Source: an uncultured Acidobacteriota bacterium (GTDB taxonomy: Bacteria; Acidobacteriota; Thermoanaerobaculia; UBA5066; Gp7-AA6). Taken from it: DNA of 64,000 nt. A program made the position numbers and the translations under genes. Every line of letters begins with the position of its first letter. Position 1 is the first letter of the stretch. Under the pieces are notes generated by a model. The model worked only from the letters and a program-made list of their open reading frames with translations. It was not told the origin of the DNA and did not search any database. Below are positions 19,620-41,969 of the stretch, one piece after another. Where the stretch lies: contig CAVXTP010000006.1 of assembly GCA_963764715.1 (NCBI GenBank), forward strand, positions 288,001-352,000. The letters are read 5' to 3'.

Positions 19620-19757
19620 GGTCGGTGCCTGGAGCTCGAACCGGATCGGAGTGGTAAGCTCCACACGCGCGTGGCTGGTCCATTACTCGAACGTCGACTC
19701 GGACCCGGATCGACGGACTTCCTCACGAAAACCCGTTCCTGATCCGTACTACGCGGC

Positions 19758-24800: not shown

Positions 24801-27780
24801 CGTCGGCTCGAAGCACTCGAGCCTCGTCACGATCGATCGCTCGGACGGCTCGGGCCTGTACAGCGATACGTCGGAAGCCGTGAAGACCTGGTGTGTCAAT
24901 GCGACCTTTTCGGATCTCGCTTCCGCAACCTGCAACACCGGCGGGCTAAACCCGATCACCACCGCGACTCGGGACGCCTACGGCCGCATCACGCAGGTCG
25001 CCCCGCCCGATACCGCGATCGAGCAGACGGCGAAATACGCCTACGACGTCAACTCGAAGCTGACCTGCGTCAAGCAGGGCGGCGCGATGGTGATGACGAG
25101 CTGCACGAGCAACTCCGGCGGGCAGTACCGCGCCTTCGACTACGACACCAACGGGTTCCTCCGCTCGGAGTCCACGCCGGAGCGCGGCGCCGTCACCTAC
25201 CAGACGATCGGCAGCCTTGGCAACGTGCTGCAGGAGAGTCAGCCCGGCAGCCTCACCATCACCCGCACGTTCGACTTCGCCGGCCGCATGACAAAGGCCG
25301 AGGCACCGTCCGGCTCGAAGGTCGTCGTGAACTGCTACGACGGAGGAAGCTGCGTCGACGGCAGCGCCAGCCATGGCGGCGGTACCTACCCCGGCGGCAA
25401 GCTGACGCGGCGCTACGGCTACAACTGGATCCCCCTCATCGGGCCGGTGGTCGATGAGAAGTTCACCTACAGCGACGGCGGCGGACGGCTCTCGCAGCTC
25501 GACACGACGGTGGGCAACGGCGACCTCGCGACTACGACGATCCAGTCCTGGACCTACGACACGACGAACTGTCACCTCGGCCTGATTTGCTCGGAGAGCT
25601 ACCCGCGCATCTCGGGGACTTTCCCGGTCAACTACACCTACTCCTACGGGCAGCCCACGGCGATCACCGCGGGGACGAGCCCCGTCAACCTCGTCACCTC
25701 GGCGACCTACAACCCCGCCGCGGGCCTGGCCTCCTGGGTCTCAGCCAGCAGCCCCACGGTCACGACGACGATCACACAGGACACGAGCCTTCTGCCGCGG
25801 CCCAACAAGATCGAGGCCAAACGCGGAACGACCGTCCTCTTCTCGACCGGCGCGTACACGTACGACTCGGCGGGCAACATCCTCTCCCAGGCCGACGGGA
25901 CCTACGGCGGCACCTATTCCTACGACAAGGGCTCGAGGCTGCTCTCGGCAACCTACTCCGGTACCCCCCGCACCTTCGCCTACGACGGCTACGGCAACCT
26001 CACGCAAAACGGCGCCTACACGATGGCGATGAACGCGTCCCTGAACAACCAGGTCGACAGCGTGACCATCAGCGGCGGTTCGCCGATCGCCACCGCTTAC
26101 GACCCCCGGGGCAACATGACGGGGGCCGTGGGCGAGGTGATCTTCTTCGACGCGCTCGACCGGGTCTACCGCAGCAAGAACGATCTCGTCGGCGACTACA
26201 CGTTCCTCCACAACGGCGCCGGGGAGCGGGTCCTGAAGTTCTCCTCCAAGTTCACCGTCCTGCGCCGCGAGATGGCACGCTACATCGCCGAGGCCAACAT
26301 CATCGCGCGGGGCTGGACCCTGCCTCTCTGCGACGGATCCAACCCCTCCCCCTTCACCGACGTCCCCTGCTCGGACCCCGACGCCCGCCACATCAAGCTC
26401 GCGTTCCAGCAGGCGATCACCGCCGGCTGCACCGGCTCGACCTTCTGCCCCGACACCGCCATCACCCGCGCCCAGATGGCCGTATTCATGGTGAAAGGCT
26501 ACCGCGGCGCCTCCTTCGTCCCCCAGTCCTGCCCGCCCGCGGTCAACCCGTTCACCGACTTCACTTGCTCCGGCCCCTACGCCGCGTATGCCCCATTCAT
26601 CATTCAGCTCTACAATGACCACGTGACCGGAGGCTGCGGCCTGAACACCTTCTGCCCCGGCGACCCCATCGGCGAATGGGAAACCCTCGTCTGGCTCGCC
26701 AAGGGCGGTCCCCCAAACGGCTCGGGCACCATCCCCTTCTGGCCCACCTATCACCCCGTCCCCCGCGGCTCGACCTACACCCTGCGCGACGAGGGCAACC
26801 GCGTCGTCACCGAGATCGCCGGGGGACTGTCGGGCTCGGGCACGGCCTCGCTCAACGTCGCCCGGGACAACGTCTACCTCGGCGGCCTGCTCGTCGCCTC
26901 CAGCGCCGGCGCCTGGAGCTACTCGGCCTCCGACAACCTGGGCTCGATCCGGGCCGTCTGGAACGCCTCAGGCACCAAGACCGAGGACCACCGCTACTGG
27001 CCCTACGGCGAGGATGCCATGGCCACCCTCAACCAGCACCTCAGCTTCCAGGGCATGGAAAGAAACGACGCCACCAACCAGTACTACGACCATGCTAGGA
27101 CACAGCAGTTCAATATCGGGCGGTTCCTGAGCACGGATGTAATTCGGGGCTCTGTGGACGTGCCATCAACTTGGAACCGCTATACCTTCGTCGGAAATAA
27201 CCCGCTACGACTCGTAGACCCCACCGGCCTTTATGAAGAGGACGTGCATCTCCATCTCACTGTCATGCTCGCATACGCTGCTGGGTTTCCCCTCGCAACC
27301 GCGAGAGCGATCGGCGCCGCTGACCAGGGAGTCGATGACAACCCGAACACATCACCGTTCGGGACCGCTGAGGTGCGCGAACTCTACCACTTCACGACCA
27401 GCGATCGCCGTGCGGACCTCTGGGCCCAGTATGAGGCGGACGGGTCACCACAGTCTCTGGGGGTATTCATGCACGCTGAACAAGACTCTTTCTCGCATCG
27501 AGGCTATGGCGCCGCGGTAGGTCACGCTGCTGCCGGTCACTCGCCCGACAAGACTTACAAGGACGCGAGCAAGGCTGAAGCCATGGCTCTCACGACCTAC
27601 AAGCGCATGCTAGCTGCCATTCCAAGCTTCAGGGGGAGCGCAGCGCCAAAGGTTCCGTGGCGACTCATTCGACCTTTTGTCGTGTCGTTCAATGAGGCCA
27701 AAGCCATTGACCGCAAGATGATGATATTGGAGCTGATGCGTCGGCAGATCGAAAAATCTCAACGCGGTTCTCACAACTAG
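21871..27780 (+). CDS. rhs: Rhs/YD-repeat polymorphic toxin with signal peptide, internal SLH domains and C-terminal Het-C/phospholipase C-like zinc domain
   Basis: AAGGAGAGGAG RBS; basic plus hydrophobic leader ending LWA-Q; YDxxGR repeats; core SDNLGS..YWPYG..GRFLSTD..NPLRLVDPTGL; tip VH..YHF..LGVFMHAEQDSFSH. Confidence 0.93.
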   Translation: MKKARAIRRTSARGKWSARRRIPLTPVVLLLATLRIALPASLWAQNGPDNDADVAAGLTNSVFETSPIDSINLYNGQLTVPIPIGPSYPIGPKLRMQLALSYTSRVDDYGRPATQSPDFFYKPLVGNPSLPIGWELTLGAIKDCKHGGASGKCLFSPDGSQHMFNKTQGNGKVTGDGSQYFLKGSGPYDMWDGDGNHYFFNWQVTGYDDSLTNYTHDFGIGRNGWYLSSVTDPFGNSYSVSYYSSISTPNWTPTSNGCGTAWPMQNPTQTNTWILKDITLPSASTIHVVQGNVNGVNGMITSVQFPELVGGASVTKTWTLANNATPQPYSRTCTSPSAIVVPLQVLQQLQLPSDLVGAPKYEFTYASNGLLSKVKLPTLGEISYCWSGFAFYHGRAGKNEPGCGNLALSDNDSILVTPPACTGLEPEPSPEPEIPGGCSGSNETQWTDGVTAIRRRTETVGGASYATEFTQYAFPRGEAGSKVTPLEPQTLTVVRYPPTDKTGSNDRTRAKAVLFKCSPEIYSTPNGPRTRPSVPGDRVGAPLEVRYFEDDPNQTTGLLDDTVAMCPGTGVDKPFCGSKAVRVAKLDYEYDDAGHQEGNRRLDFSKTIYGAATCAGCPYHQIDLSLGVGETWEGNGRHYGIEAHSGTLGGDARTIVTDWAQVNWVSGPPADGVVLPNIVNQRTTTQGTSVRDEYFDFDTASTPPTDFLKGTFLYDAAKDIALINCRYDDGNGSADKEFTRTLSTTSIPSRTYCSDNYSTFPTVGNDGDFFGKDYTWQHGELLNARWINGTVGSSTFKVEDYARDATTGWITSSTDTAGRTTLFKYDSMGRATEADPPATNEFTTFTCYEGPNETTVYRASAAIACPVAASGSATTWQHTTYDGLGRVIREQRKVSGVPTTNLSKRFFQFDGRGNQTFQSEWLACTSSPCQTNDEALTLDLDTACVFSGGNQSARKRSSTAPGTWSACWDPFGRPQQVVGSKHSSLVTIDRSDGSGLYSDTSEAVKTWCVNATFSDLASATCNTGGLNPITTATRDAYGRITQVAPPDTAIEQTAKYAYDVNSKLTCVKQGGAMVMTSCTSNSGGQYRAFDYDTNGFLRSESTPERGAVTYQTIGSLGNVLQESQPGSLTITRTFDFAGRMTKAEAPSGSKVVVNCYDGGSCVDGSASHGGGTYPGGKLTRRYGYNWIPLIGPVVDEKFTYSDGGGRLSQLDTTVGNGDLATTTIQSWTYDTTNCHLGLICSESYPRISGTFPVNYTYSYGQPTAITAGTSPVNLVTSATYNPAAGLASWVSASSPTVTTTITQDTSLLPRPNKIEAKRGTTVLFSTGAYTYDSAGNILSQADGTYGGTYSYDKGSRLLSATYSGTPRTFAYDGYGNLTQNGAYTMAMNASLNNQVDSVTISGGSPIATAYDPRGNMTGAVGEVIFFDALDRVYRSKNDLVGDYTFLHNGAGERVLKFSSKFTVLRREMARYIAEANIIARGWTLPLCDGSNPSPFTDVPCSDPDARHIKLAFQQAITAGCTGSTFCPDTAITRAQMAVFMVKGYRGASFVPQSCPPAVNPFTDFTCSGPYAAYAPFIIQLYNDHVTGGCGLNTFCPGDPIGEWETLVWLAKGGPPNGSGTIPFWPTYHPVPRGSTYTLRDEGNRVVTEIAGGLSGSGTASLNVARDNVYLGGLLVASSAGAWSYSASDNLGSIRAVWNASGTKTEDHRYWPYGEDAMATLNQHLSFQGMERNDATNQYYDHARTQQFNIGRFLSTDVIRGSVDVPSTWNRYTFVGNNPLRLVDPTGLYEEDVHLHLTVMLAYAAGFPLATARAIGAADQGVDDNPNTSPFGTAEVRELYHFTTSDRRADLWAQYEADGSPQSLGVFMHAEQDSFSHRGYGAAVGHAAAGHSPDKTYKDASKAEAMALTTYKRMLAAIPSFRGSAAPKVPWRLIRPFVVSFNEAKAIDRKMMILELMRRQIEKSQRGSHN

Positions 27781-27802
27781 ACGTATTGTTTGGGAGGCGG
27801 TC

Positions 27803-28159
27803 ATGCAGAGTCGCTCCAGTGCAACTGGACCCCTGATTTGGGTAACCGCAGCAGTCGTGCTGACCGTCGGCCTAGGGCTCATAGCCTGGCGCCTAGCGGG
27901 AGCAGGACACGGCACATACATTCCAGCGTTGGTCTGCTTTCCGTTTGCAATGCTTATCGCCGCCGTCGTTGGCCATATTGGAATTGTGCCGCTGCTAGTG
28001 GCGGTCCTTCAGTACCCGCTCTACGCGGTCTTCGTATCAACTCAGTCAGCACTCGGCAAACAGACCAAAGGGCGATTGAAGACCGTTGTCGTATGTCACG
28101 GTCTCGCGGTCCTAGTGGCTGTAGCGGTTGCGGCTGTGACACGAACGTTTTGGAGCTGA
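27803..28159 (+). CDS. Putative immunity protein for the main Rhs tip (about 4 TM)
   Basis: Small hydrophobic ORF directly after the toxin stop, AT-richer like the tip. Confidence 0.65.
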   Translation: MQSRSSATGPLIWVTAAVVLTVGLGLIAWRLAGAGHGTYIPALVCFPFAMLIAAVVGHIGIVPLLVAVLQYPLYAVFVSTQSALGKQTKGRLKTVVVCHGLAVLVAVAVAAVTRTFWS

Positions 28160-28284
28160 GTTGTATTGGTGGGACCACTGGAGTCAGTCGTCTCATGTTT
28201 GATGTCAGCGGGAGGCCCATGGAGCTTATGGAGCCAATCGTGTAACCCTAGATTGCCAGCAGTGTCGGTGAGCGCGGCAACCTC

Positions 28285-28432
28285 ATGGCGACGACGACGC
28301 AGTCCTGGACCTACGATTCGACGAACTGCCACCTCGGCCTGATTTGCTCGGAGAGTTACCCGCGCATCTCCGGGACCTTCCCGGTCAACTACACCTACTC
28401 CTTCGGGCTGCCCACGGCGATCACCGCGGGGC
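28285..28432 (+). pseudogene. Short rhs fragment (TTTQSWTYD..TAITAG)
   Basis: Matches main rhs ~25530-25672; bounded on both sides by junction-motif copies. Confidence 0.8.
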
Positions 28433-28496
28433 GTTGTGGGGTCAACGGTGAAATCCTGTATTGGCTGCGGAGTCGACAGGACCTCGAGCCTAGTGG

Positions 28497-28699
28497 TAAG
28501 GCGGCCTAACGCGAAGCGCCTCAAGCTGATCGTCCAACAGGAAATGACCGCCACCGCACTGGTTCGGTCTTCCGTCGCGGCACCGGCATCACCCGCGCCC
28601 AGCTGGCCGTGTTTCGGAGCCAACGACCCACGGCTCGATCCGAATGTCGATGTCCTAGCATCGGTGTCGGCGACTAGGGTTCGAATTCGCTTCCGACGT
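28497..28699 (+). repeat. ~200-bp intergenic block repeated at ~36560-36763, with a diverged partial copy at ~40345-40460
   Basis: taaggcggcctaacgcgaagcgcctcaagctg...ttcgaattcgcttccgacgt appears identical in the first two copies. Confidence 0.85.
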
Positions 28700-28741
28700 G
28701 AGCTTCTGGGGTCGATCGTGTAATCCTGTGTTGCCAGCGGA

Positions 28742-31039
28742 GTCGGTGAGCGCGGCGACCTGACGACGACGCAGTCCTGGACCTACGACACGACGAACTG
28801 TCACCTCGGCCTGATTTGCTCGGAGAGCTACCCGCGCATCTCGGGGACCTTCCCGGTCAACTACACCTACTCCTACGGGCAGCCCACGGCGATCACCGCG
28901 GGGACGAGCCCGGTCAACCTCGTCACCTCGGCGGCCTACAACCCCGCCGGCGGCCTGGCCTCCTGGGTCTCGGCCAGCAGCCCCACGGTCACGACGACGA
29001 TCACACAGGACACGAGCCTTCTACCCCGGCCCAACAAGATCGAGGCCAAACGTGGAACGACCGTCCTCTTCTCGACCGGCGCGTACACGTACGACTCGGC
29101 GGGCAACATCCTCTCCCAGGCCGACGGGACCTACGGCGGCACCTATACCTACGACAAGGGCTCGAGGCTGCTCTCGGCAACCTACTCCGGTACCCCCCGC
29201 ACCTTCGCCTACGACGGCTACGGCAACCTCACGCAAAACGGCGCCTACACGATGGCGATGAACGCGTCCCTGAACAACCAGGTCGATAGCGTGACCATCA
29301 GCGGCGGTTCGCCGATCGCCACCGCTTACGACCCCCGGGGCAACATGACGGGGGCCGTGGGCGAGGTGATCTTCTTCGACGCGCTCGACCGGGTCTACCG
29401 CAGCAAGAACGATCTCGTCGGCGACTACACGTTCCTCCACAACGGCGCCGGGGAGCGGGTCCTGAAGTTCTCCTCCAAGTTCACCGTCCTGCGCCGCGAG
29501 ATGGCACGCTACATCGCCGAGGCCAACATCATCGCGCGGGGCTGGACCCTGCCTCTCTGCGACGGATTCAACCCTTCCCCCTTCACCGACGTCCCCTGCT
29601 CGGACCCCGACGCCCGCCACATCAAGCTCGCGTTCCAGCAGGCGATCACCGCCGGCTGCACCGGCTCGACCTTCTGCCCCGACACCGCCATCACCCGCGC
29701 CCAGATGGCCGTATTCATGGTGAAAGGCTACCGCGGCGCCTCCTTCGTCCCCCAGTCCTGCCCGCCCGCGGTCAACCCGTTCACCGACTTCACTTGCTCC
29801 GGCCCCTACGCCGCGTATGCCCCGTTCATCATTCAGCTCTACAATGACCACGTGACCGGAGGCTGCGGCCTGAACACCTTCTGCCCCGGCGACCCCATCG
29901 GCGAATGGGAAACCCTCGTCTGGCTCGCCAAGGGCGGTCCCCCAAACGGCTCGGGCACCATCCCCTTCTGGCCCACCTATCACCCCGTCCCCCGCGGCTC
30001 GACCTACACCCTGCGCGACGAGGGCAACCGCGTCGTCACCGAGATCGCCGGGGGCCTCTCGGGATCAGGCACGGCGAGCCTGGCCGTCGCCCGGGACAAC
30101 GTCTATCTCGGCGGCCTGCTCGTCGCCTCCAGCGCCGGCGCCTGGAGCTACTCGGCCTCCGATCACCTCGGCTCGATCCGCGCCGTCTGGAACGCCTCGG
30201 GCACCAAGACCGAGGACCACCGCTACTGGCCCTACGGCGAGGATGCCATGGCCACCCTCAACCAGCACCTCAGCTTCCAGGGCATGGAAAGAAACGACGC
30301 CACCCACCAGTACTACGACCATGCACGGACGCAGCAGTTCAATATCGGGAGGTTCTTGAGCACGGATCAGCTTCGAGGCACGCCTTCCAACCCTGCCACG
30401 TGGAACCTCTACACGTTTGCCCTTAACAATCCGGCGCGACTCACGGATCCCACCGGTCTGGACGCCGACAATCCCAGTGGCCACTCAAGCATTCTGGATC
30501 GAGTCTTCTCCTGGGTGTCCCGCACGTTCAAGAACATCTTCCCCGCGCCGAAGGCAGACCCAGCGGACCCCAACCTGCAGGCGATGAATGACGACTCCGT
30601 TGGCAATACGCCCGCTCAAGCTGAACGTATGGCCAATCCCAAGGGCGCAGCTCAACAGGGCGTCGCGGAAGGAGGCGCCACGATCACCGCCGCTGCGGCG
30701 ACCGCGGCGACAATCATCATCATTGATCGGGGAACCGGCAAAGTAATAGAGATTGTCGCCGATACGGCAGCGGACGCAGCGGCCGCGGTTCGGCTCGCAA
30801 AATCCCTTGCCAGCGAGTCGCAGATGGCAGAACGAGGAAGCGTAATCGCGGGCGCGGGCGGGCGCAGGATTCTAGGTGACTCGGAGAGACTCGCGGAGAG
30901 TTATGGTGGCGCAGCTGCTGACTGGGCCAAAATGCGGAGTAGTTCCTTTACCGCAGCGGACGGCGTGAAGTTCGAGACACACTGGTACCAGAACGTGAAG
31001 ACTGGACAACAGGTCGAATTCAAGACAAAGTTCCAATAG
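28742..31039 (+). CDS. Orphan rhs cassette 1 (3' core + SLH + toxin tip of unknown, possibly nuclease, type)
   Basis: Near-identical to main rhs ~25510-27139, then NPARLTDPTGL and a new tip ending YGG..DWAK..FETHWYQN..VEFKTKFQ; no signal peptide. Confidence 0.85.
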   Translation, partial: VGERGDLTTTQSWTYDTTNCHLGLICSESYPRISGTFPVNYTYSYGQPTAITAGTSPVNLVTSAAYNPAGGLASWVSASSPTVTTTITQDTSLLPRPNKIEAKRGTTVLFSTGAYTYDSAGNILSQADGTYGGTYTYDKGSRLLSATYSGTPRTFAYDGYGNLTQNGAYTMAMNASLNNQVDSVTISGGSPIATAYDPRGNMTGAVGEVIFFDALDRVYRSKNDLVGDYTFLHNGAGERVLKFSSKFTVLRREMARYIAEANIIARGWTLPLCDGFNPSPFTDVPCSDPDARHIKLAFQQAITAGCTGSTFCPDTAITRAQMAVFMVKGYRGASFVPQSCPPAVNPFTDFTCSGPYAAYAPFIIQLYNDHVTGGCGLNTFCPGDPIGEWETLVWLAKGGPPNGSGTIPFWPTYHPVPRGSTYTLRDEGNRVVTEIAGGLSGSGTASLAVARDNVYLGGLLVASSAGAWSYSASDHLGSIRAVWNASGTKTEDHRYWPYGEDAMATLNQHLSFQGMERNDATHQYYDHARTQQFNIGRFLSTDQLRGTPSNPATWNLYTFALNNPARLTDPTGLDADNPSGHSSILDRVFSWVSRTFKNIFPAPKADPADPNLQAMNDDSVGNTPAQAERMANPKGAAQQGVAEGGATITAAAATAATIIIIDRGTGKVIEIVADTAADAAAAVRLAKSLASESQMAERGSVIAGAGGRRILGDSERLAESYGGAAADWAKMRSSSFTAADGVKFETHWYQNVKTGQQVEFKTKFQ

Positions 31040-31041
31040 CA

Positions 31042-31461
31042 ATGAGAGCACTCTGTCGAGCCACAGTCGTCACCGAGCTGCAGGAACTGAGCCTGGGGCC
31101 ATACTTTGTTCGGCAGGACTTCCACGTATCTGCGGGCAAGGAATATTTGGTCTTAGGCATTTTCGGGAGTTCAGGTGAATCCCCCTATGGAAACGGAATT
31201 CACGTGCTGGTCGTCAGTGATTACGGTCACCCTACTTGGGTGCCGCTCGCACTCTTCAGCATCACCGACAATCGAGCCTCGCGTTACTGGATCGCGATTC
31301 CGACGGAGAAGGGCGGGCTGGAACTATCGCACCCCTCGTTCGAACCAGCCAGTTTCTTTGACGACCTCTCCGAAGGGAGGGCCGAGGCCAAGGCTTCGTT
31401 TGAGTTTGCATTGCGGCAACTTGAGGCTGAGTTTCTCCAGGCGAACGCAAGCATCCAGTAA
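31042..31461 (+). CDS. Putative immunity protein for cassette 1
   Basis: Starts 2 nt after the toxin stop; 139 aa, AT-richer. Confidence 0.7.
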   Translation: MRALCRATVVTELQELSLGPYFVRQDFHVSAGKEYLVLGIFGSSGESPYGNGIHVLVVSDYGHPTWVPLALFSITDNRASRYWIAIPTEKGGLELSHPSFEPASFFDDLSEGRAEAKASFEFALRQLEAEFLQANASIQ

Positions 31462-31462
31462 A

Positions 31463-32800
31463 CGCCATCACTCGCGCCCAGATGGCCGTCTTCATGGTCA
31501 AGGGTTATCGCGGCGCCTCCTTCGTCCCCCAGTCCTGCCCGCCCGCGGTCAACCCGTTCACCGACTTCACTTGCTCCGGCCCTACGCCGCGTATGCCCCG
31601 TTCATCATTCAGCTCTACAATGACCACGTGACCGGAGGCTGCGGCCTGAACACCTTCTGCCCCGGCGACCCCATCGGCGAATGGGAAACCCTCGTCTGGC
31701 TCGCCAAGGGCGGTCCCCCAAACGGCTCGGGCACCATCCCCTTCTGGCCCACCTATCACCCCGTCCCCCGCGGCTCGACCTACACCCTGCGCGACGAGGG
31801 CAACCGCGTCGTCACCGAGATCGCCGGGGGCCTCTCGGGATCAGGCACGGCGAGCCTGGCCGTCGCCCGGGACAACGTCTATCTCGGCGGCCTGCTCGTC
31901 GCCTCCAGCGCCGGCGCCTGGAGCTACTCGGCCTCCGATCACCTCGGCTCGATCCGCGCCGTCTGGAACGCCTCGGGCACCAAGACCGAGGACCACCGCT
32001 ACTGGCCCTACGGCGAGGATGCCATGGCCACCCTCAACCAGCACCTCAGCTTCCAGGGCATGGAAAGAAACGACGCCACCCACCAGTACTACGACCACGC
32101 ACGGTCGCAGCAGTTCAATATCGGAAGGTTCCTGAGTACGGATCCGTACCACGGCTCAATTGAGGAGCCCGCAACTTGGAACCGATATTGCTTCGCGCTG
32201 GGTAACCCCATTCGATACACAGATCCTGACGGCCTCAACTCCGATGATGAGCCGAACGATGACTTGCCCAAGAGCGCTTGCTTGGCAAACCCTCAGGCTT
32301 GTGGTGCGGAGGCTTCAATAGAAGAATTCGTAAACGTGTCAGGTACCGGCCCAACGGGGGTTGAAATTATCCAGCAGGGCACGGAGGCGGCCGCTCCGGT
32401 GGTCTTCCCACTCTTTAACGGGACGATGTTCTTCGCGTCGACTGCCACTGGCAACATGGAGATAACAGCAGGTCTGCGCCTATTCCGGTCAGTAGGATCC
32501 GCATGGAATGCATTCCGAACCGCAAGACCCGCACTTCCGTTTAAGCGGGACCTCGCGACCAAGGTTCAAGAAGCTATCGACCGAGCGCTCTCGAGGTCAC
32601 CGCGCTTCTCCAAGGACGGGACAACCTTTCGCAATGATCAGGGCCTTCTACCTCAGCGGGGAACCGGCTACTACTCGGAGTGGACGGTCGAACCAGCGCC
32701 GGGGTCACCAGGGCGAGGTACTGAGAGGCTCGTCGTTGGGTCAGACGGCGACATCTACTACACTCACAACCACTATGGCTCCTTCGTAAGGATCAAATGA
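31463..32800 (+). CDS. Orphan rhs cassette 2 with barnase/RNase Sa-type ribonuclease tip (1-nt indel near 31580)
   Basis: Begins at SLH motif [10 protein letters not shown]; NPIRYTDPDGL; FRNDQGLLP..YYSEWTV..RGTERLVVG..YYTHNHYGSF. Confidence 0.88.
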   Translation, partial: RHHSRPDGRLHGQGLSRRLLRPPVLPARGQPVHRLHLLRPYAAYAPFIIQLYNDHVTGGCGLNTFCPGDPIGEWETLVWLAKGGPPNGSGTIPFWPTYHPVPRGSTYTLRDEGNRVVTEIAGGLSGSGTASLAVARDNVYLGGLLVASSAGAWSYSASDHLGSIRAVWNASGTKTEDHRYWPYGEDAMATLNQHLSFQGMERNDATHQYYDHARSQQFNIGRFLSTDPYHGSIEEPATWNRYCFALGNPIRYTDPDGLNSDDEPNDDLPKSACLANPQACGAEASIEEFVNVSGTGPTGVEIIQQGTEAAAPVVFPLFNGTMFFASTATGNMEITAGLRLFRSVGSAWNAFRTARPALPFKRDLATKVQEAIDRALSRSPRFSKDGTTFRNDQGLLPQRGTGYYSEWTVEPAPGSPGRGTERLVVGSDGDIYYTHNHYGSFVRIK

Positions 32801-33327
32801 CGCTGGAATCCAGAGGTCACCTCACTAAATTGACCGGGTGCATGATGCATCTCGTCACTGCAAGATCCCGGCGGCTCCGTGAGCTAATGCGCGCGGCGGC
32901 CGATCTGGGCTTTTTACGGATCGACCTGGATGTGGCCGGCGTTGGAGACAAGGAGACACTACAGTCACTTGTGGCTCAGTCCTTTCGGTTTCCTCCTGAG
33001 CTAGGAACAAACTGGGACGCCTTACTCGACTCGCTTCGCGATTTGTCATGGTTGAAGGCACCCGGCTACATGATCGTTGTGCGCGGCGGCGATCGTGTCG
33101 CGCGGGTTTGCCCCGAGCTTGTCGAAAGACTGTTCCCGATACTGGCGCAGGCACAAGAAGACTGGAGACTCGAGCGCGTCCCTTTCCATGTAGTCGTCGA
33201 GACTGGCGGTCCTGTGGCGTCCGTTCTCGAGCAGACAGACCTCCGAGTTTCACGGCCAGGCGAGTACCCCCTGTCTCGATTGAGGATTATCTGTGATGAC
33301 CGAGTAGCTGATTCTGGCGGGACGTAA
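32797..33327 (+). CDS. Barstar-family RNase inhibitor (immunity)
   Basis: ATGA overlap with toxin; FRFPPELGTNWDALLDSLRDLSW barstar motif. Confidence 0.9.
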   Translation: MTLESRGHLTKLTGCMMHLVTARSRRLRELMRAAADLGFLRIDLDVAGVGDKETLQSLVAQSFRFPPELGTNWDALLDSLRDLSWLKAPGYMIVVRGGDRVARVCPELVERLFPILAQAQEDWRLERVPFHVVVETGGPVASVLEQTDLRVSRPGEYPLSRLRIICDDRVADSGGT

Positions 33328-33452
33328 GGATATGGGACGTTGTGGGGACCTCGTGGGGTCAACCGTGTAAGCCTGTATTGGCTGCAGAGTCGAAGGGCAC
33401 TCGAGCTTGCAAGCTTCTGGGGTCGATCGTGTAATCCTGTATTGCCAGCGGA

Positions 33453-35738
33453 GTCGGTGAGCGCGGCGACCTGACGACGATCCAGTCCTGGACCTACGAC
33501 ACGACGAACTGTCACCTCGGCCTGATTTGCTCGGAGAGCTACCCGCGCATTTCCGGGACTTTCCCGGTTAACTACACCTACTCCTTCGGGCAGCCCACGG
33601 CGATCACCGCGGGGACGAGCCCCGTCAACCTCGTCACCTCGGCGGCCTACAACCCCGCCGCGGGCCTGGCCTCCTGGGTCTCGGCCAGCAGCCCCACGGT
33701 CACGACGACGATCACACAGGACACGAGCCTTCTACCCCGGCCCAACAAGATCGAGGCCAAACGTGGAACGACCGTCCTCTTCTCGACCGGCGCGTACACG
33801 TACGACTCGGCGGGCAACATCCTCTCCCAGGCCGACGGGACCTACGGCGGCACCTATACCTACGACAAGGGCTCGAGGCTGCTCTCGGCAACCTACTCCG
33901 GTACCCCCCGCACCTTCGCCTACGACGGCTACGGCAACCTCACGCAAAACGGCGCCTACACGATGGCGATGAACGCGTCCCTGAACAACCAGGTCGATAG
34001 CGTGACCATCAGCGGCGGTTCGCCGATCGCCACCGCTTACGACCCCCGGGGCAACATGACGGGGGCCGTGGGCGAGGTGATCTTCTTCGACGCGCTCGAC
34101 CGGGTCTACCGCAGCAAGAACGATCTCGTCGGCGACTACACGTTCCTCCACAACGGCGCCGGGGAGCGGGTCCTGAAGTTCTCCTCCAAGTTCACCGTCC
34201 TGCGCCGCGAGATGGCACGCTACATCGCCGAGGCCAACATCATCGCGCGGGGCTGGACCCTGCCTCTCTGCGACGGATTCAACCCTTCCCCCTTCACCGA
34301 CGTCCCCTGCTCGGACCCCGACGCCCGCCACATCAAGCTCGCGTTCCAGCAGGCGATCACCGCCGGCTGCACCGGCTCGACCTTCTGCCCCGACACCGCC
34401 ATCACCCGCACCCAGATGGCCGTATTCATGGTGAAAGGCTACCGCGGCGCCTCCTTCGTCCCCCAGTCCTGCCCGCCCGCGGTCAACCCGTTCACCGACT
34501 TCACTTGCTCCGGCCCCTACGCCGCGTATGCCCCGTTCATCATTCAGCTCTACAATGACCACGTGACCGGAGGCTGCGGCCTGAACACCTTCTGCCCCGG
34601 CGACCCCATCGGCGAATGGGAAACCCTCGTCTGGCTCGCCAAGGGCGGTCCCCCAAACGGCTCGGGCACCATCCCCTTCTGGCCCACCTATCACCCCGTC
34701 CCCCGCGGCTCGACCTACACCCTGCGCGACGAGGGCAACCGCGTCGTCACCGAGATCGCCGGGGGTCTGTCGGGCTCGGGCACGGCCTCGCTCAACGTCG
34801 CCCGGGACAACGTCTACCTCGGCGGCCTGCTCGTCGCCTCCAGCGCCGGCGCCTGGAGCTACTCGGCCTCCGATCACCTCGGCTCGATCCGGGCCGTCTG
34901 GAACGCCTCGGGGACCAAGACCGAGGACCACCGCTACTGGCCCTACGGCGAGGATGCGACGGCCACCCTCAACCAGCACCTCGCGTTCCAGGGCATGGAA
35001 AGAAACGACGCCACTAACCAGTACTACGACCATGCACGGACTCAGCAGTTCAATATCGGACGGTTCTTGAGTACGGATGTCATCGACGGCTACCCCGAAG
35101 AGCCAAGGAGTTGGAACCGGTACGTGTTCGGGTTTGATAACCCGATGGTCTACACCGACCCCCTCGGCCTCGAGCCGGACAACCCGAGCGGGCAGTCGAA
35201 GTCGGCGGGCGACAAACGTCTCGATCCTGGTTTCTTCTGCTTCTTCTTTCGCTGCCAATCAGATGTAACCGTCACGGGCCACGCAACTGGCTCAACTTGG
35301 AATCCTGGAGGTGGAGGCTTTCCGGGAACGACCGGGCGATTCACGCTCCGTGGGCTGGCACCCTTGGTGGACGGAGCCATACCATTTTCCGACCCTCTTG
35401 CGTTGGCCCATTGGTATGACCCGGATGACTTGGGTATGCACGAAAGTTACATAGCCGGCCTTGCCATCCAAGAGTCAGTCCTTGTCACCGCAACGGCAGA
35501 ACGGGCAGTAGTTGCAACCGCCGAGAGGGCCACACTGAATGCCTGGCGCATGCCGATAGGTAAGCGCGAAGGTAGCTTCATAACCGAGAATATCTTCCGT
35601 TGGGGCTCTCGGCCTTTCCGCCACTTCCATCTCGGGCCAAAGCGCCTCATGGGCCATCATTTACCTGGCGAACTGCGTACTTACCTCGGTCACGCGCGGG
35701 CGCTAATTATTCAGGCCTTGAAACGGTTGGGTTCGTGA
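33453..35738 (+). CDS. Orphan rhs cassette 3 with His-rich tip of unknown family
   Basis: Duplicate core, NPMVYTDPLGL, tip with FRHFHLGP..GHHLP. Confidence 0.85.
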   Translation, partial: VGERGDLTTIQSWTYDTTNCHLGLICSESYPRISGTFPVNYTYSFGQPTAITAGTSPVNLVTSAAYNPAAGLASWVSASSPTVTTTITQDTSLLPRPNKIEAKRGTTVLFSTGAYTYDSAGNILSQADGTYGGTYTYDKGSRLLSATYSGTPRTFAYDGYGNLTQNGAYTMAMNASLNNQVDSVTISGGSPIATAYDPRGNMTGAVGEVIFFDALDRVYRSKNDLVGDYTFLHNGAGERVLKFSSKFTVLRREMARYIAEANIIARGWTLPLCDGFNPSPFTDVPCSDPDARHIKLAFQQAITAGCTGSTFCPDTAITRTQMAVFMVKGYRGASFVPQSCPPAVNPFTDFTCSGPYAAYAPFIIQLYNDHVTGGCGLNTFCPGDPIGEWETLVWLAKGGPPNGSGTIPFWPTYHPVPRGSTYTLRDEGNRVVTEIAGGLSGSGTASLNVARDNVYLGGLLVASSAGAWSYSASDHLGSIRAVWNASGTKTEDHRYWPYGEDATATLNQHLAFQGMERNDATNQYYDHARTQQFNIGRFLSTDVIDGYPEEPRSWNRYVFGFDNPMVYTDPLGLEPDNPSGQSKSAGDKRLDPGFFCFFFRCQSDVTVTGHATGSTWNPGGGGFPGTTGRFTLRGLAPLVDGAIPFSDPLALAHWYDPDDLGMHESYIAGLAIQESVLVTATAERAVVATAERATLNAWRMPIGKREGSFITENIFRWGSRPFRHFHLGPKRLMGHHLPGELRTYLGHARALIIQALKRLGS

Positions 35739-36343
35739 CTCTCCGGTACCTTACCTTCTGGAATCGGCTTGAACCCGGGTGTGACCCCCGGCCGGACGAG
35801 GATGAGTGGCCTGATGCCCGACCGAGTTTCGCCTCGGAAACGTGGCCTTTGATCGAAACGAAACGCGCATCGATTACAGGTCTCTATTATTGGAATCGAC
35901 GGGGGGAGAGCTCGCTGCTCAGCGGGCTCGCCTCATCGGGAACATCGGTTCCAGGATTTCTACGACTCATAAACCTTGTCGAAATGGATTCTGCTGCCCT
36001 AGATCGAGTCTTCACAGCAGCGGACGGCGACATGGAGGTTTTTTTCGAGACGGATGACCAGTGGTTCCTGCGAGCCTTGTGCGCCCTGTGGCCACGACCC
36101 GGTATCTTGCGCGTTGGCAGGGAAAGACTGGGTCGCCTCACCGAAGCAGAGGTTGAGACCCTCGGCCGCGCCGTTTCCGCGATCCCGGCTGACCGTGCCT
36201 GGTTCTCACTTAACGATGAAGGATGGTTGCTCTACGTTTTCGGTTCTCAGGGACTGCTTACCTGGGCACAGCAAAGCAAGGGTCGTCGCGAGCAAGCCGA
36301 TAGCCGGAGCTGGTCGTTGAAGCCCGAGCCCGAGACCCAATAG
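35735..36343 (+). CDS. Putative immunity protein for cassette 3
   Basis: GTGA overlap with toxin stop; ~202 aa acidic/aromatic ORF. Confidence 0.65.
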   Translation: MTLRYLTFWNRLEPGCDPRPDEDEWPDARPSFASETWPLIETKRASITGLYYWNRRGESSLLSGLASSGTSVPGFLRLINLVEMDSAALDRVFTAADGDMEVFFETDDQWFLRALCALWPRPGILRVGRERLGRLTEAEVETLGRAVSAIPADRAWFSLNDEGWLLYVFGSQGLLTWAQQSKGRREQADSRSWSLKPEPETQ

Positions 36344-36908
36344 GATTCAGACACCAGGTAGGAATCGATTCCAAGACCAGGCTGGCGGGCAGTCGATACG
36401 GCCGCCCGCAAAGGCAACCTCATGCCACGACGACGCAGTCCTGGATGAGCTTCTGGGGTCGATCGTGCAATCCTGTATTGCCAGCGGAGTCGGTGAGCGC
36501 GGCGACCTGACGACGACGCAGTCCTGGACCTACGGCACGACGAACTGTCACCTCGGCCTGTAAGGCGGCCTAACGCGAAGCGCCTCAAGCTGATCGTCCA
36601 ACAGGAAATGACCGCCACCGCACTGGTTCGGTCTTCCGTCGCGGCACCGGCATCACCCGCGCCCAGCTGGCCGTGTTTCGGAGCCAACGACCCACGGCTC
36701 GATCCGAATGTCGATGTCCTAGCATCGGTGTCGGCGACTAGGGTTCGAATTCGCTTCCGACGTCGGATCCAGCATGAGCGGATGCCATTCGCGATAATCG
36801 CGTTATCGTCCCGAATGCTCCGACCATGACCGATCGCGCCTCGTTCAACCGGATCTGCACGGGGATTTGGGGGGTCAATCGTGTAATCCTGTATTGCCAG
36901 CATACCCG

Positions 36909-39229
36909 GTCGGCAACGGCAACCTCGCGGCTACGACGATCCAGTCCTGGACCTACGACACGACGAACTGTCACCTCGGCCTGATTTGCTCGGAGAGCTA
37001 CCCGCGCATCTCGGGGACCTTCCCGGTCAACTACACCTACTCCTTCGGGCAGCCCACGGCGATCACCGCGGGGACGAGCCCCGTCAACCTCGTCACCTCG
37101 GCGGCCTACAACCCCGCCGCGGGCCTGGCCTCCTGGGTCTCGGCCAGCAGCCCCACGGTCACGACGACGATCACACAGGACACGAGCCTTCTACCCCGGC
37201 CCAACAAGATCGAGGCCAAACGTGGAACGACCGTCCTCTTCTCGACCGGCGCGTACACGTACGACTCGGCGGGCAACATCCTCTCCCAGGCCGACGGGAC
37301 CTACGGCGGCACCTATACCTACGACAAGGGCTCGAGGCTGCTCTCGGCAACCTACTCCGGTACCCCCCGCACCTTCGCCTACGACGGCTACGGCAACCTC
37401 ACGCAAAACGGCGCCTACACGATGGCGATGAACGCGTCCCTGAACAACCAGGTCGATAGCGTGACCATCAGCGGCGGTTCGCCGATCGCCACCGCTTACG
37501 ACCCCCGGGGCAACATGACGGGGGCCGTGGGCGAGGTGATCTTCTTCGACGCGCTCGACCGGGTCTACCGCAGCAAGAACGATCTCGTCGGCGACTACAC
37601 GTTCCTCCACAACGGCGCCGGGGAGCGGGTCCTGAAGTTCTCCTCCAAGTTCACCGTCCTGCGCCGCGAGATGGCACGCTACATCGCCGAGGCCAACATC
37701 ATCGCGCGGGGCTGGACCCTGCCTCTTTGCGACGGATCCAACCCTTCGCCCTTTACCGACGTCCCCTGCTCGGACCCCGACGCCCGCCACATCAAGCTCG
37801 CGTTCCAGCAGTCGATCACAGCCGGCTGCACCGGCTCGACCTTCTGCCCCGACACCGCCATCACCCGCGCTCAGATGGCCGTCTTCATGGTCAAGGGCTA
37901 CCGCGGCGCCTCCTTCGTCCCCCAGTCCTGCCCGCCCGCGGTCAACCCGTTCACCGACTTCACTTGCTCCGGCCCCTACGCCGCGTATGCCCCGTTCATC
38001 ATTCAGCTCTACAATGACCACGTGACCGGAGGCTGCGGCCTGAACACCTTCTGCCCCGGCGACCCCATCGGCGAATGGGAAACCCTCGTCTGGCTCGCCA
38101 AGGGCGGTCCCCCAAACGGCTCGGGCACCATCCCCTTCTGGCCCACCTATCACCCCGTCCCCCGCGGCTCGACCTACACCCTGCGCGACGAGGGCAACCG
38201 CGTCGTCACCGAGATCGCCGGGGGCCTCTCGGGATCGAGCACCGCCTCACTCACCGTCGCCCGGGACAACGTGTATCTCGGCGGCCTGCTCGTCGCCTCC
38301 AGCGCCGGCGCCTGGAGCTACTCGGCCTCCGATCACCTCGGCTCGATCCGCGCCGTCTGGAACGCCTCGGGACGAAGACCGAGGACCACCGCTACTGGCC
38401 CTACGGCGAAGACGCCACGGCCACCCTCAACCAGCACCTCAGCTTCCAGAGCATGGAAAGAAACGACGCCACCCACCAGTACTACGACCACGCACGGACA
38501 CAGCAGTTCAATATCGGACGGTTCTTGAGCACGGATCTGCTACGAGGCACCCCGGCAAGCCCTTCGTCTTGGAACCTCTACACATTCGCACTCAACAATC
38601 CTGTGAGGCTTACAGATCCCGACGGACTAGAGGCCGACAATCCGAGCGGCCACTCGAGTCTAATGGGTCGATTCTTCTCGTGGGTATCGCGAACCTTCAA
38701 GAGCTTCTTTCCCGGACCACGCCAGCTTTCACCAGGCGATCCGAACGCGGAAGCGATGAATGACGAAACGGTTGGCAATACGCCCTCGCAAGTCAATCGG
38801 ATGGCCAACCCCGGCGGCGTTGCTCAAAGCGGCATCCTCGAGGGCGGGGCCACTGTCACGGCAGCGGGAGCAACAGCAGTTGCAGTCATCATTGTCGACC
38901 GTGCGACGGGGAAAGTCATCGAAGTTCTCGCGGACACCGCGAGCGTAGCTGCCAAGATCCTCTCGGCAGAGCGAGTTGACTCCGGCCTGAAAGCGGATGC
39001 CCTGCACAGGGCGGCGAGCTTCGTGAGCCGCGAGCAACTCGAGGCAGGGACTGCGTTCAGAATCACGGGCCGCGACGGCGCCGAGGTTACTCTTCTTCAA
39101 ACTCCGGGGGGCGGGAACGGACGATCTGGGATTTACGAATACGTCTTGGAGCGAAGCGGTGTTGTGTCCCATCAACGGTTCATTCCGGGTGGGACCATCA
39201 CAGGTTACCCGAATCAGGTGGTGAGGTAA
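36909..39229 (+). CDS. Orphan rhs cassette 4 with putative nuclease-type tip (1-nt indel near 38370)
   Basis: Duplicate core, [11 protein letters not shown], tip ending [29 protein letters not shown]. Confidence 0.85.
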
Positions 39230-39234
39230 GGTTC

Positions 39235-39753
39235 ATGGACGTGGTCCGCTTGTGGATTCCGTACGGTTTCATCCGCAATAGAGTCCGGATGACCTGGCGT
39301 GAGATCCTGTTTGGCCTGGATGAGGAACTATTAGACCCTTCCGCTCCGACGCATCTCGCGACCGACATAGTGGATGAGGCGAATTCGCCCGATTCGAGGC
39401 TGGTTGATCTCGCCGGATTGAGCGCCCACCAGGATGCCCGTCCGTACGTCGAGGCCTTGGCCGCGCGCGAGCCGGAGGAGCCTCTGCCAGAAATCAAGGC
39501 GAAATGGCTTTGCGTGTCGTTGGCCTGGCTTTACGAGCGCAGGAACGAGTACGAAGACCCCCTGCGCGAAGTCGCAAAGGTCTACGCCGACTTCGATTAC
39601 CCGGAGCGGATTGCGAGCTTCGTGCACTACATGCCCATGGACGAACCGGACCTCGGCAGTCGCGAGCTCAATGAAGCACGTCTCTACCAGAAATGGAAAG
39701 ATTACCTAGACGATTGCTGGAGTGAGCACGCGCGCCATCTTGGGACACGTTGA
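39235..39753 (+). CDS. DUF2247-like protein, putative immunity for cassette 4
   Basis: KWL..LAWLY..DPL..VYADFDYPE.IASFVHYMP pattern; 5 nt after the toxin stop. Confidence 0.75.
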   Translation: MDVVRLWIPYGFIRNRVRMTWREILFGLDEELLDPSAPTHLATDIVDEANSPDSRLVDLAGLSAHQDARPYVEALAAREPEEPLPEIKAKWLCVSLAWLYERRNEYEDPLREVAKVYADFDYPERIASFVHYMPMDEPDLGSRELNEARLYQKWKDYLDDCWSEHARHLGTR

Positions 39754-39775
39754 AACCTGGGTCGGACCTTCAATT

Positions 39776-40299
39776 CCCCCCGCAGCTTCGCCTACGACGG
39801 CTACGGCAACCTCACGCAACACGGCGCCTACACCATGGCGATGAATTCTTCCCTCAACAACCAGGTCGACACCGTCACGATCGCCGGGACGCCGCCGACC
39901 GTGATCGCCACCGCCTACGACTCCCGGGGCAACATGACCGGGGCCGTGGGCGAAGTGATCTTCTTCGACTCACTCGACCGGGTCTACCGCAGCAAGAACG
40001 ACCTCGTGGGCGACTACACGTTCCTCCACAACGGCGCCGGGGAGCGGATCCTGAAGTTCCCCTCCAAGTTCTCCGTCCTGCGCCGCGAGATGGCCCGCTA
40101 CATCGCCGAGGCCAACATCATCGCCAGAGGCTGGACCCTGCCTCTCTGCGACGGATCCAACCCTTCCCCCTTCACCGACGTCCCCTGCTCGGACCCCGAC
40201 GCCCGCCACATCAAGCTCGCGTTCCAGCAGGCGATCACCGCCAGCTGCACCGGCTCGACCTTCTGCCCCGACACCGCCATCACCCGCGCTCAGATGGCC
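39776..40299 (+). pseudogene. Diverged rhs remnant without a tip
   Basis: [18 protein letters not shown] then breaks into the junction motif at ~40302. Confidence 0.85.
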
Positions 40300-40517
40300 T
40301 CTGGGGTCGATCGTGTAATCCTGGATTGCCGCCGCAGTCGGTGAGCGCGCCCAGCCGTGTTTCGGAGTCAACGACTCACGGGGACGACTCACGGCTCGAT
40401 CCGAATGTTGACGTCTTGGCGTCGGTATCGAAGGACGAGAGTTAGGACTCGCTTCCGACGGCCGGACCCAGCGTAGGCGGCTGCACGCAATCGGTTATCG
40501 TCTCGACTAACTGGGCC

Positions 40518-41969
40518 ATGACCGATCGCGCCTCGTTCAACCGGATCTGCACCTGCGTCGCCGTCTCGGCGGCGGCGGTCCTGCTGTCTCTTCAGTTGCT
40601 GGTCCCCCCGATCGTCGGCCTCGCGAACGAGGGAGATTTCGAGCGGGTGATGGGTTACGCGGGCCTTTTCTACCCGACCGACAAGTTCGAGGAGAAGTAC
40701 TACGGCCACATCGTCACCAAGTTCAACGTCGTCGCGCCGGGCTGGTACGCGAGCGGTTACCTGACGACCGAAACGCTCGTCGCGTATTCCGCGCGGCTCG
40801 TCAGCCTCGCCCTCTTCCCGGGCCGCATGTTCGACATCCGGATTTTCGCCGCGATACAAATGCTGCTGCTGCTGACAGCCCTCGGCCTCTTCGTGCGGGC
40901 CTGTCGGGACCTGGCGCCGGCGGCGCAGGCGGCGGTCGCCGTTCTTCTCGTCCTGATCTTCACGGACGTCGGGTATGCGGCGGCAATCAACTCGTTTTAC
41001 CCTCAGACGGCGTCGCTGCTCTTCATTCTCCTCACGCTCGCGTTCGCTGCCGTGGGCATTCGGATGGTTCGGCTTCGCGGCCCTGCGGTCGTTGGGTATT
41101 TCGTCTCCGCGGCGCTCTTCGTCTGTTCAAAACCCCAGGAGGCCATCCACGCTCCCCTCCTCGGCGGGCTGGGCGTAATTCTGGCGATCGCGGGGCAAAG
41201 CGAGACCGGGTCTTCGCGCCGCGTTGTCGTTGCGATCGCGCTCGCCGTGGCGCTCGGCGCCCTCGGCCTCTGGTATTACCGGCAGGTGCCGAAAGTCAGC
41301 ATTCGTTATGTCGGTCTCTTCCACACGGTTTTCCACGAGCTCCTCCAGAATTCGCCCGATCCACGCCGCGACATGGAGGAGCTCGGCATCGCACCGGACC
41401 TCGACCGGTACATCGGCGTGCACGCCTACATGAAAGAGTCTCCGATCGAGGACCCGGCCTTCCAGGCTCGATTCTTCGATCACTTCGGCTATGCGAAGGT
41501 GATGGGTTTCTACCTGCGGCATCCGGACCGGCTCCTCGATCGCCTGCGGCGGGCGGCTCCCGGGGCGTTCCGGCTGCGCCCGAAGTACCTGGGCAACTTC
41601 GAGAAGGCGACGGGGGTTGCGCCTCGGACCAAGGCCACTCGGTTCGCGCTGTGGAGCGACGTCCGGGCGAAGCTCGAAAGGCACGCGGCCGTGACGCTGG
41701 TCGTCTTCTTCGTCGGAAACCTTCTCGCCGCGGCACTTTCCTGGCGAGGCACAACAATGCGCGGCCGCCTCTTTCTCGTGGCTCTGGTGGCCTGTCTGCT
41801 CATTGCCGGCGTCGAATTCGGCGTCAACGCGTTCGCGGATGCGCTCGATGATCTGGGTCGCCACCTTTTCGTGTTCGACGCGCTCTGCGATCTCGTGCTC
41901 GTCGCGGACGTGGCCTGGCTGATCCAGTGGCTCGCGACGCGGCGCGCGCTGTCGCCGCGCTCGGCATGA
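40518..41969 (+). CDS. WsfD-like multi-TM (GT-C type) glycosyltransferase
   Basis: PPIVGLANEGDFER, FDIR, DVGYAAAINSFY, SKPQ, RHLF motifs; many TMs. Confidence 0.65.
   Translation: MTDRASFNRICTCVAVSAAAVLLSLQLLVPPIVGLANEGDFERVMGYAGLFYPTDKFEEKYYGHIVTKFNVVAPGWYASGYLTTETLVAYSARLVSLALFPGRMFDIRIFAAIQMLLLLTALGLFVRACRDLAPAAQAAVAVLLVLIFTDVGYAAAINSFYPQTASLLFILLTLAFAAVGIRMVRLRGPAVVGYFVSAALFVCSKPQEAIHAPLLGGLGVILAIAGQSETGSSRRVVVAIALAVALGALGLWYYRQVPKVSIRYVGLFHTVFHELLQNSPDPRRDMEELGIAPDLDRYIGVHAYMKESPIEDPAFQARFFDHFGYAKVMGFYLRHPDRLLDRLRRAAPGAFRLRPKYLGNFEKATGVAPRTKATRFALWSDVRAKLERHAAVTLVVFFVGNLLAAALSWRGTTMRGRLFLVALVACLLIAGVEFGVNAFADALDDLGRHLFVFDALCDLVLVADVAWLIQWLATRRALSPRSA

Follow-up and report, generated by a model that had tools for sequence, protein, structure and literature searches.

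How did one short motif come to stand at so many of the boundaries of a polymorphic-toxin array? The question is raised by a 64,000-nt stretch of contig CAVXTP010000006.1 from an uncultured Acidobacteriota bacterium (hereafter the window; all positions are those of the whole stretch), in which an intact rhs gene (21670-27780; positions given as "main" lie in this gene) is followed by an Rhs orphan array with nine copies of a 29-nt motif in one orientation. A first-pass annotation, made from the letters alone, had proposed that the motif is a site for the recombination of toxin cassettes. Sequence comparison identifies the motif as a terminal inverted repeat (TIR), that of a RAYT-like (TIRYT) family of transposons, which is present in the array as solo copies. 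It is no new kind of site: transposon ends of this class are known, although none had been described from such a place. As an explanation of the whole, we propose that the outer edge of the solo TIR was a recurrent join point for duplication and deletion, most plausibly via nicking by the TIRYT transposase, and we give this reading a probability of roughly 0.5.

A pattern search of the window, which has a G+C content of 68%, returned six copies of the motif at ≤3 mismatches, with none expected in 100 shuffles. A looser search (≤8 substitutions) returned eight, starting at 28229, 28437, 28707, 33354, 33418, 36454, 36870, and 40302, all on the plus strand and none on the minus strand, and an independent repeat listing of the window recovered the same eight as one family. 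The ninth copy (28179-28207) is degenerate and matches the motif at 18 of 29 bases by manual count. By pairwise comparison, the copies at 28229, 28707, 33418, 36454, 36870, and 40302 were assigned to type A, and those at 28179, 28437, and 33354 to type B. Across the whole genome (4.36 Mb, 26 contigs), all six matches to the pattern lay inside the Rhs orphan array; an nhmmer profile found eight array copies at E ≤ 1e-12, and its next match, on contig C4, had an E value of 0.036. No copy was found in the intact main gene, either by mismatch-tolerant search or by blastn. These results bore out the first-pass description of about nine copies that share one orientation, are confined to the array, and are absent from the intact gene, with eight of the nine clear and one degenerate. 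The positions that it had given to the motif were also recovered: blastn placed the restart of rhs homology at main 25508-25528 behind the copies at 28229, 28707, 33418, 36454, and 36870; the copies at 28437 and 40302 cut short rhs fragments that end at 28431 (main 25674) and 40299 (main 26481), respectively; and those at 28179 and 33354 follow the stop codons of immunity genes by 20 and 27 nt.

The identity of the motif became apparent from related genomes, whose scanning the first-pass annotation had called for and which carry the motif that is confined to the array here. Among 105 genomes of the same family, scanned with 0 control hits, the motif was present in 12 (this one included), which fall in 2 of 12 genera, and the 48 public genome stretches that carry it came from Acidobacteriota or Thermoanaerobaculia assemblies, bar one that is differently labelled. 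At four loci of relatives (L010, L012, L013, and L015), inverted pairs of the motif stand about 1.05 kb apart around an open reading frame of 320-322 amino acids (aa), and the inverted copies around the frames of the first three are 27-37 nt long. Further inverted pairs flank homologues in L029, L030, L031, and L034, and in L009, L014, L017, and L023 inverted pairs only 60-115 nt apart form miniature elements. The 320-322-aa product is a Y1/HUH transposase, as indicated by matches to Pfam Y1_Tnp (PF01797; E values 3e-13 and 4e-15) and to NCBIfam NF047646 (REP_Tyr_transpos; 81.7 bits for L030 and 75.9 bits for L013, at a cut-off of 80). Its length of 320 aa fits a C-terminal extension, for which we obtained weak matches only, to the DnaA C-terminus (TIGR00362, E 0.003-0.004) and to HTH_38 (E 0.004, below its cut-off). 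In folding tests, the short doublets formed hairpins (z −6.1 and −8.2), whereas singlets from the array scored no better than shuffles (z 0.1 to 0.8).

These properties are those of TIRtrons, which in the accessible text of Di Nocera et al. (2013; PMC3733652) encode TIRYT transposases, carry the TIR head GGGGWSAS, and form a well-defined Acidobacteria group; TIRYT is placed in subclass 2.1 of TnpA_REP, with Bac_DnaA_C/HTH tails, in that of Quentin et al. (2018; PMC6006769). Compared with this head, GGGGTCAA and GGGGTCGA of the present motif both fit at positions 1-6, both have A at the eighth position (S), and GGGGTCGA also departs at the seventh (A); other TIR families of this genome, GGGGTCAG..., fit GGGGWSAS fully. 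The resemblance to HUH/Y1 (RAYT-like) ends to which the first-pass annotation had pointed was thus substantiated by the inverted copies that flank a Y1_Tnp gene in relatives. Given these inverted pairs, a dif/Xer site, a sigma-54 or ECF promoter, and a 38-bp inverted repeat of the Tn3 family were dropped as candidates. As regards a promoter role, which was considered and set aside, the conserved box TCGCGACAAyT and a −10-like hexamer occur, on our reading, in the TIRtron leader past the TIR and not within the TIR. At two of the loci (L013:1501-1526 and L010:1501-1536), the TIRYT frame ends inside the TIR, where the reverse complement of the repeat encodes the last residues ...NTGIHD and the stop codon.

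In this genome, Y1 genes are present at C6:495354, about 167 kb from the array, and on contigs C4 (one full and one to two truncated Y1/TIRYT genes), C7, and C17. None lies in the window, and PF00589 (tyrosine recombinase) had no match on contig C6 and six on other contigs, in agreement with the first-pass statement that the window encodes no recombinase. The Y1 genes of C6, C7, and C4 are each flanked by their own different TIR family, other TIRs being carried by all four full or partial paralogues inspected, and the motif profile found no copy on C17. As a side observation, the 30-kb contig C4 is packed, at 16000-29595 (L092), with the TIR family GGGGTCAGTCTTGATTTGCTGATTTC, of which it holds 15 of the 21 genome copies, and its TIRYT genes each follow closely on the 3' end of an SLH-type gene. 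C4 was considered as a case in which a same-strand TIR truncates a gene other than rhs, and was left uncounted because the TIR there is part of a doublet cluster.

We then compared the sequences on the two sides of the array TIRs, numbered M0 to M8 from left to right. To the right of every copy, a few bases are followed by rhs sequence from about main 25497, and seven of the nine rhs fragment starts in the window lie directly behind a TIR. Types A and B and copy M7 appear to be diverged alleles of a single TIR-rhs joint, and the type-B tail fits an internal deletion. The left sides are the ends of two unrelated immunity genes, rhs sequence at main 25674 and at main 26481, flank F at its positions 204 and 301, a relic of an older TIR tail, and a type-B tail. 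Flank F, whose intact copy closes the array on the right, is present three times with overlapping extents (1-204 up to M3, 1-301 up to M7, and 115 onward behind M8), and its position 301 lies 12 codons into a copy of the next gene. Because the three copies overlap in extent, flank F must have been duplicated and not split by insertion. Six of the 11 mapped breakpoints fall ≤12 nt to the left of a TIR (binomial P = 2e-10, in a rough test that assumes uniform placement and uses our own breakpoint calls). Thus, the left edge is a strongly non-random breakpoint.

Just before many of the array TIRs stands a short, degenerate copy of the head. More generally, we observed a "stutter" at the outer ends of TIRs, in which the opening 11-13 nt of the TIR are tandemly doubled together with 8-12 nt of flank, or a degenerate head precedes the TIR (L019, L030, L034, L015, L009, and L058; window positions 28428, 33341, and 36861). 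The stutter suggests repeated break-and-join or slippage at the TIR outer end. An apparent excess of conservation in the motif core over the tail, seen in an ungapped comparison, was rejected, since the tails differ by indels.

The arrangement of solo TIRs before rhs orphans was also found in other genomes. The copy number ranged from 7 to 18 per genome (≤3 mismatches, five genomes). The 18 copies of G025 comprise three that flank TIRYT genes, four in a doublet cluster, and 11 in two rhs arrays; all 11 array copies are co-oriented with rhs, whose homology restarts about 45-70 nt past the TIR, at about residue 1508 of the main protein. These arrays also hold stumps in which a TIR and 56 nt directly abut another TIR. 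Two further TIR-rhs joints were found in G038, at about residue 1391 (with the head of a second TIR family in between) and at about residue 1305. Immediately before two G025 orphans that lack this TIR, heads of other TIR families occur in the orientation of the orphans. The G105 array is related to that of G025 and differs from it in cassette content, with the TIR-plus-core boundaries kept. Cognate enzymes are encoded elsewhere in G025 and G038, and the TIRYT gene, present in two copies in G025 and G026, looks IS-like. When matches to the SLH-like segment (main residues 1530-1678) were excluded from the rhs counts, the 100 distinct copies at genome-derived loci divided into 48 with an inverted partner, none of them beside rhs, and 52 solo copies, of which 14 have rhs homology within 700 nt on the inner side.

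Other features of these genomes were noted in passing. The rhs arrays of L109 (G105:C2:159424-179423) and L026 (G025) are 98% identical over 2.6 kb, and the main tip of G025 sits in G105 as a TIR-less orphan behind a different tip; G105 is 8.1 Mb in size, is labelled as another phylum, and is possibly a mixed bin. Some G025 orphans are complete reading frames that start 12 nt behind the TIR, with no Shine-Dalgarno or ribosome-binding site seen, and at L026:8413-10128 and 6413-7891 an in-frame GTG is supplied just past the TIR. A single rhs orphan was seen in L099. "Short-frame" rhs matches in the genus proved to be full-length genes with frame breaks and not orphans.

Our proposal builds on the identity of the TIRs, their solo same-strand arrangement, the clustering of breakpoints, and the recurrence of the association in other genomes. 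The clustering, together with the polarity-consistent association with rhs orphans elsewhere, argues that the TIR outer edge is, or was, a preferred join point, and nicking by the cognate enzyme is the most plausible cause of this preference. In the course of events that we envisage, the inner side of one solo TIR would have become linked, near main codon 1277, to an rhs core that lacks its 5' part, and the unit of TIR, rhs core, toxin tip, and immunity gene would have been multiplied by tandem duplication of a segment that runs from the TIR outer edge to a variable downstream point. Such duplications would account for the overlapping copies of flank F and for the first 12 codons of the next gene, each abutting a TIR. 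Deletions that end at the same edge would leave stumps, in which a TIR and a short piece of rhs run into another TIR. The toxins and immunity genes would have diversified by ordinary homologous recombination, with exchange in the rhs core (97-98% identity) to the left and probably in the TIR and spacer to the right. At the level of the enzyme, TIRYT may nick the TIR outer edge and stay on the 5' end of the TIR-led strand, which could then be joined to another 3' end on the sister copy in a one-ended strand transfer. Such nicking would date from an ancestor or donor in which the cognate enzyme was still present; in the present genome, the site has probably become inert. A wider claim, that cassettes of Rhs toxins and immunity genes are amplified, reshuffled, and possibly transferred through the action of TIRYT enzymes on solo TIRs, is one that we regard as doubtful.

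Several observations weigh against the proposal, besides the roughness of the breakpoint test. All nine copies appear to share one ancestral TIR-rhs joint, so the restart at the same codons would be inherited and would not reflect repeated choice of a site; to that extent, much of the pattern appears to be inheritance. The joints show 0-6 nt of microhomology, which also fits enzyme-free template switching. Orphans without the TIR exist: those at 31463 and 39776 in the window, where a blastn map against the main gene showed no motif at the 5' ends, the newest orphan in G105 (L109), and one in G025 (L090). The metagenome contigs yielded 116 copies (62 paired and 54 solo), and 0 of the 54 solo copies had detectable rhs on the inner side, although short-read contigs would break in such arrays, which are unlikely to assemble. 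The rhs type is present in 39 of 44 genomes of the genus, with multi-orphan arrays seen only in this genome (G000), G025, and G038, G023 being fragmentary; only three to four genomes show the association, and G025 and G105 share an array. Finally, no transposase flanked by the TIR subfamily of the motif was found in this genome (96.8% complete), and outside the array the subfamily is represented only by degenerate relics at C4:23476 and C22:136090. Since the Y1 genes inspected have other TIRs and only degenerate relics lie outside the array, the cognate enzyme seems to have been lost or to be unassembled. The C22 relic (136064-136100, minus strand; L091), in which the head is doubled, shares its strand with the genome's second rhs gene (C22:142441-137720) and sits 1.6 kb farther downstream.

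Most of these observations would be expected if the motif were a passive passenger. A TIR or half-doublet would have landed once before an orphan, the rest would be due to recombination or conversion in the rhs cores and to deletions at microhomologies, and the motif would seem to be a boundary only because it lies at the edge of a conversion tract. We consider this account rather unlikely as a whole, even with the apparently common joint, the TIR-less orphans, the metagenome counts, the microhomology at some joints, and the missing enzyme on its side, and with rhs cores that are 97-98% identical and able to recombine. Six different sequences abut the TIR outer edge (two rhs positions, two flank F positions, the TIR-tail relic, and the type-B tail), and core recombination would not create them. 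In addition, the same solo arrangement, with the inner side toward rhs, occurs at other rhs positions in G025 and G038, in genomes with 7-18 copies, and the heads of other TIR families precede other orphans. The first-pass annotation had itself named, as telling against a dedicated site, descent from one insertion by duplication and the lack of copies or a cognate enzyme elsewhere. One ancestral joint spread by duplication is indeed what the nine copies appear to show, no cognate enzyme was found in this genome, and both copies and cognate enzyme are present in relatives.

The integron-like site of the first-pass annotation, at which a Y1/HUH enzyme acting in trans would release the cassettes between direct TIRs as circles and insert them again at a TIR, so that a toxin library is built up, appears improbable. 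Direct repeats in one orientation do stand at cassette edges, cognate enzymes are encoded elsewhere in G025 and G038, and the contents of G025 and G105 differ with their TIR-plus-core boundaries preserved. Moreover, as the abstract of PMC6006769 restates, the enzyme family is known to act on single-stranded DNA and, in IS200/IS605 relatives, to form circles. However, precise exchange predicts the same sequence to the left of each TIR, and truncated genes and overlapping flank copies were seen instead, so the toxin library is unsupported by the structure of the joints. Exchange is already explained by the 1.6 kb of rhs homology per cassette, no folding was seen in the singlets, a cognate enzyme is missing from this genome, and the contig has no tyrosine recombinase. 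Short contigs from the two public runs that shared about 6% of the sampled words gave no joint at the motif. Mis-joining of near-identical rhs repeats is conceivable in a metagenome-assembled genome of 26 contigs with 1.6-kb repeats at 97-99% identity in the array, but an assembly artefact is hardly credible, as the copies differ in ordered ways (types A and B, tails, and left flanks), the same architecture occurs in three other assemblies, and one 151-nt public contig, which may derive from the source sample, matches 33341-33491 exactly across M4 and M5.

The array has the features by which Rhs orphan arrays are recognized, namely an intact rhs gene, 5'-truncated cores, distinct tips past PxxxxDPxGL, and immunity genes; all features described here are on the plus strand. 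The main gene (2036 aa; Pfam RHS_repeat, SLH, and DUF6765) carries a C-terminal tip of its own and is followed by the putative immunity frame of that tip (27803-28159; 118 aa, no Pfam family), 20 nt past whose stop codon lies the degenerate type-B copy M0. The decayed type-A copy M1 (28229-28257) precedes an rhs fragment (28266-28431, corresponding to main 25508-25674), which the type-B copy M2 (28437-28465) truncates after ...TAITAG. The first copy of flank F (28496-28699; positions 1-204), identical to 36560-36763, is truncated by the type-A copy M3 (28707-28735), which heads orphan 1 (28742-31039), with an rhs core that corresponds to main 25528-27138 at 97.5% identity and with tip 1. A putative immunity frame (31042-31461; 139 aa, no Pfam family) separates it from orphan 2 (31463-32800), which combines a core corresponding to main 26457-27190 with a ribonuclease tip (PF00545), has no TIR at its 5' end, and is followed, in a barnase/barstar module, by a Barstar-family immunity gene (32797-33327; PF01337, E 3.7e-22). 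The type-B copy M4 (33354-33382) lies 27 nt past the barstar stop codon, and the type-A copy M5 (33418-33446), an exact match to the consensus, heads orphan 3 (33453-35738), whose core (main 25528-27140, 97.9% identity) and tip 3 are in an intact frame.

Farther to the right, the type-A copy M6 (36454-36482) truncates a 33-nt remnant of the tail of an older TIR. Behind M6 come an rhs fragment (36502-36560) and the second copy of flank F (36560-36860; positions 1-301), which runs ~12 codons (from 36826) into a copy of the downstream gene. This copy of flank F is truncated by the type-A copy M7 (36870-36898), which heads orphan 4 and is itself part of an open frame that starts at a TTG (36867). 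Orphan 4 (36907-39229), with a core corresponding to main 25508-27138 at 97% identity and tip 4, is frameshifted near the ...NASG/TKTEDH junction and is followed by a DUF2247 immunity-like gene (39235-39753; PF10004, E 6e-32). An rhs fragment without a TIR at its 5' end (39776-40299, corresponding to main 25964-26481) is truncated after ...ITRAQMA by the last type-A copy, M8 (40302-40330), whose ~20-nt tail joins flank F near its position 115. The intact third copy of flank F (40358-41969) continues into the downstream gene (40518-41969; 483 aa, no Pfam family). The orphan translations run through ...NNPxRLxDPxGL into divergent tips. In orphans 1 and 3, an open frame extends from a TAA within the motif as far as the tip and offers no start codon for about 170 codons, the first start codon of orphan 1 being at 29252.

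Two further observations concern the rhs sequence itself. The start of flank F (28521-28610 and 36585-36674) is an old rhs relic with 77% identity to main 26393-26483, and it ends at the same rhs position at which M8 truncates the fragment 39776-40299. Residues ~1530-1678 of the main Rhs protein (window 26260-26700) form an embedded SLH-like segment, with the Pfam SLH match at residues 1561-1604. A tblastn search with this segment returned well over 100 matches in the genome, dozens of which stand in a run on contig C21 (~315-418 kb) at a spacing of about 2-3 kb.

The growth of Rhs orphan arrays is usually explained by homologous recombination alone, and to our knowledge the cellular role of RAYT/TIRYT transposases and of their repeats is an open question. 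A low-copy TIR family that is concentrated in rhs arrays (all nine copies here and 11 of 18 in G025) and stands at many array breakpoints links the two in a testable form, with a defined substrate, the TIR edge, and defined enzymes, such as the product of the L030 gene. If TIRYT does reshuffle cassettes, these enigmatic, domesticated-looking transposases would have a concrete part to play in Acidobacteria genomes, the building of polymorphic-toxin arrays. Should the link be purely historical, the motif would still be fully explained as a decaying transposon end and would serve as a marker for the history of array duplication. No report linking RAYT or REP to Rhs orphans was found in the literature searched, with the supplementary TIRYT lists lying outside that search. 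The earlier statement that no dedicated site is known for orphan Rhs exchange still stands, as an integron-like site is not demonstrated here.

Several known systems can be compared with the array. A main rhs gene with an array of orphan tips and immunity genes occurs in E. coli, Salmonella, and Serratia, and the present array resembles these in its intact rhs gene followed by 5'-truncated cores with tip and immunity gene, in orphans without start codons, and in homology that allows tip swapping; it is unlike them in that most orphans begin behind a transposon TIR and the join points cluster there. In Salmonella, Shyamala, Schneider and Ames reportedly described in 1990 REP sequences at the joints of tandem duplications, with both end points in REPs. 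A short dispersed repeat at the duplication joint is common to both cases, whereas here just one of the end points falls in the repeat and its counterpart in arbitrary sequence. One-ended (rolling-circle) HUH transposition of the IS91/ISCR type has one fixed end and one variable end, and in integrons same-orientation attC sites separate promoterless cassettes. Both provide a working analogy, for the fixed and variable ends and for the same-orientation sites, but the enzyme here is Y1 and RAYT-like, not Y2 or IntI. At the array, no terminus, attI-like partner, circle, or adjacent recombinase was found, and the nearest Y1 gene is the one on C6.

REP/REPIN-RAYT systems (Nunvar 2010, PMC2817692; Ton-Hoang 2012, PMC3333891) share with the present family the enzyme family (NF047646), the long-hairpin doublets, and the repeats inverted around the gene. 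The motif differs in that its unit is not itself a palindrome, that its head is GGGGTCA and not GTAG, and that it occurs in 7-18 copies per genome versus hundreds, with the nine copies here all in one array; the abstract of PMC2817692 gives a REP copy number of >100 per genome. TIRtrons differ from the window, which has neither a transposase nor an inverted partner and holds nine solo copies in one orientation within an Rhs orphan array, and toxin cassettes are unmentioned in the accessible text of PMC3733652 and PMC6006769. The relatives place the motif among them: a RAYT-like Y1/HUH gene lies between TIRs of ~27 nt with a GGGG(T)(C)A head, which fits the published consensus in part, the C-terminal tail may be HTH/DnaA_C-like (from weak matches here), the copies occur as singles, dimers, and groups in moderate number, the family is prominent in Acidobacteria, and each transposase paralogue has a TIR family of its own.

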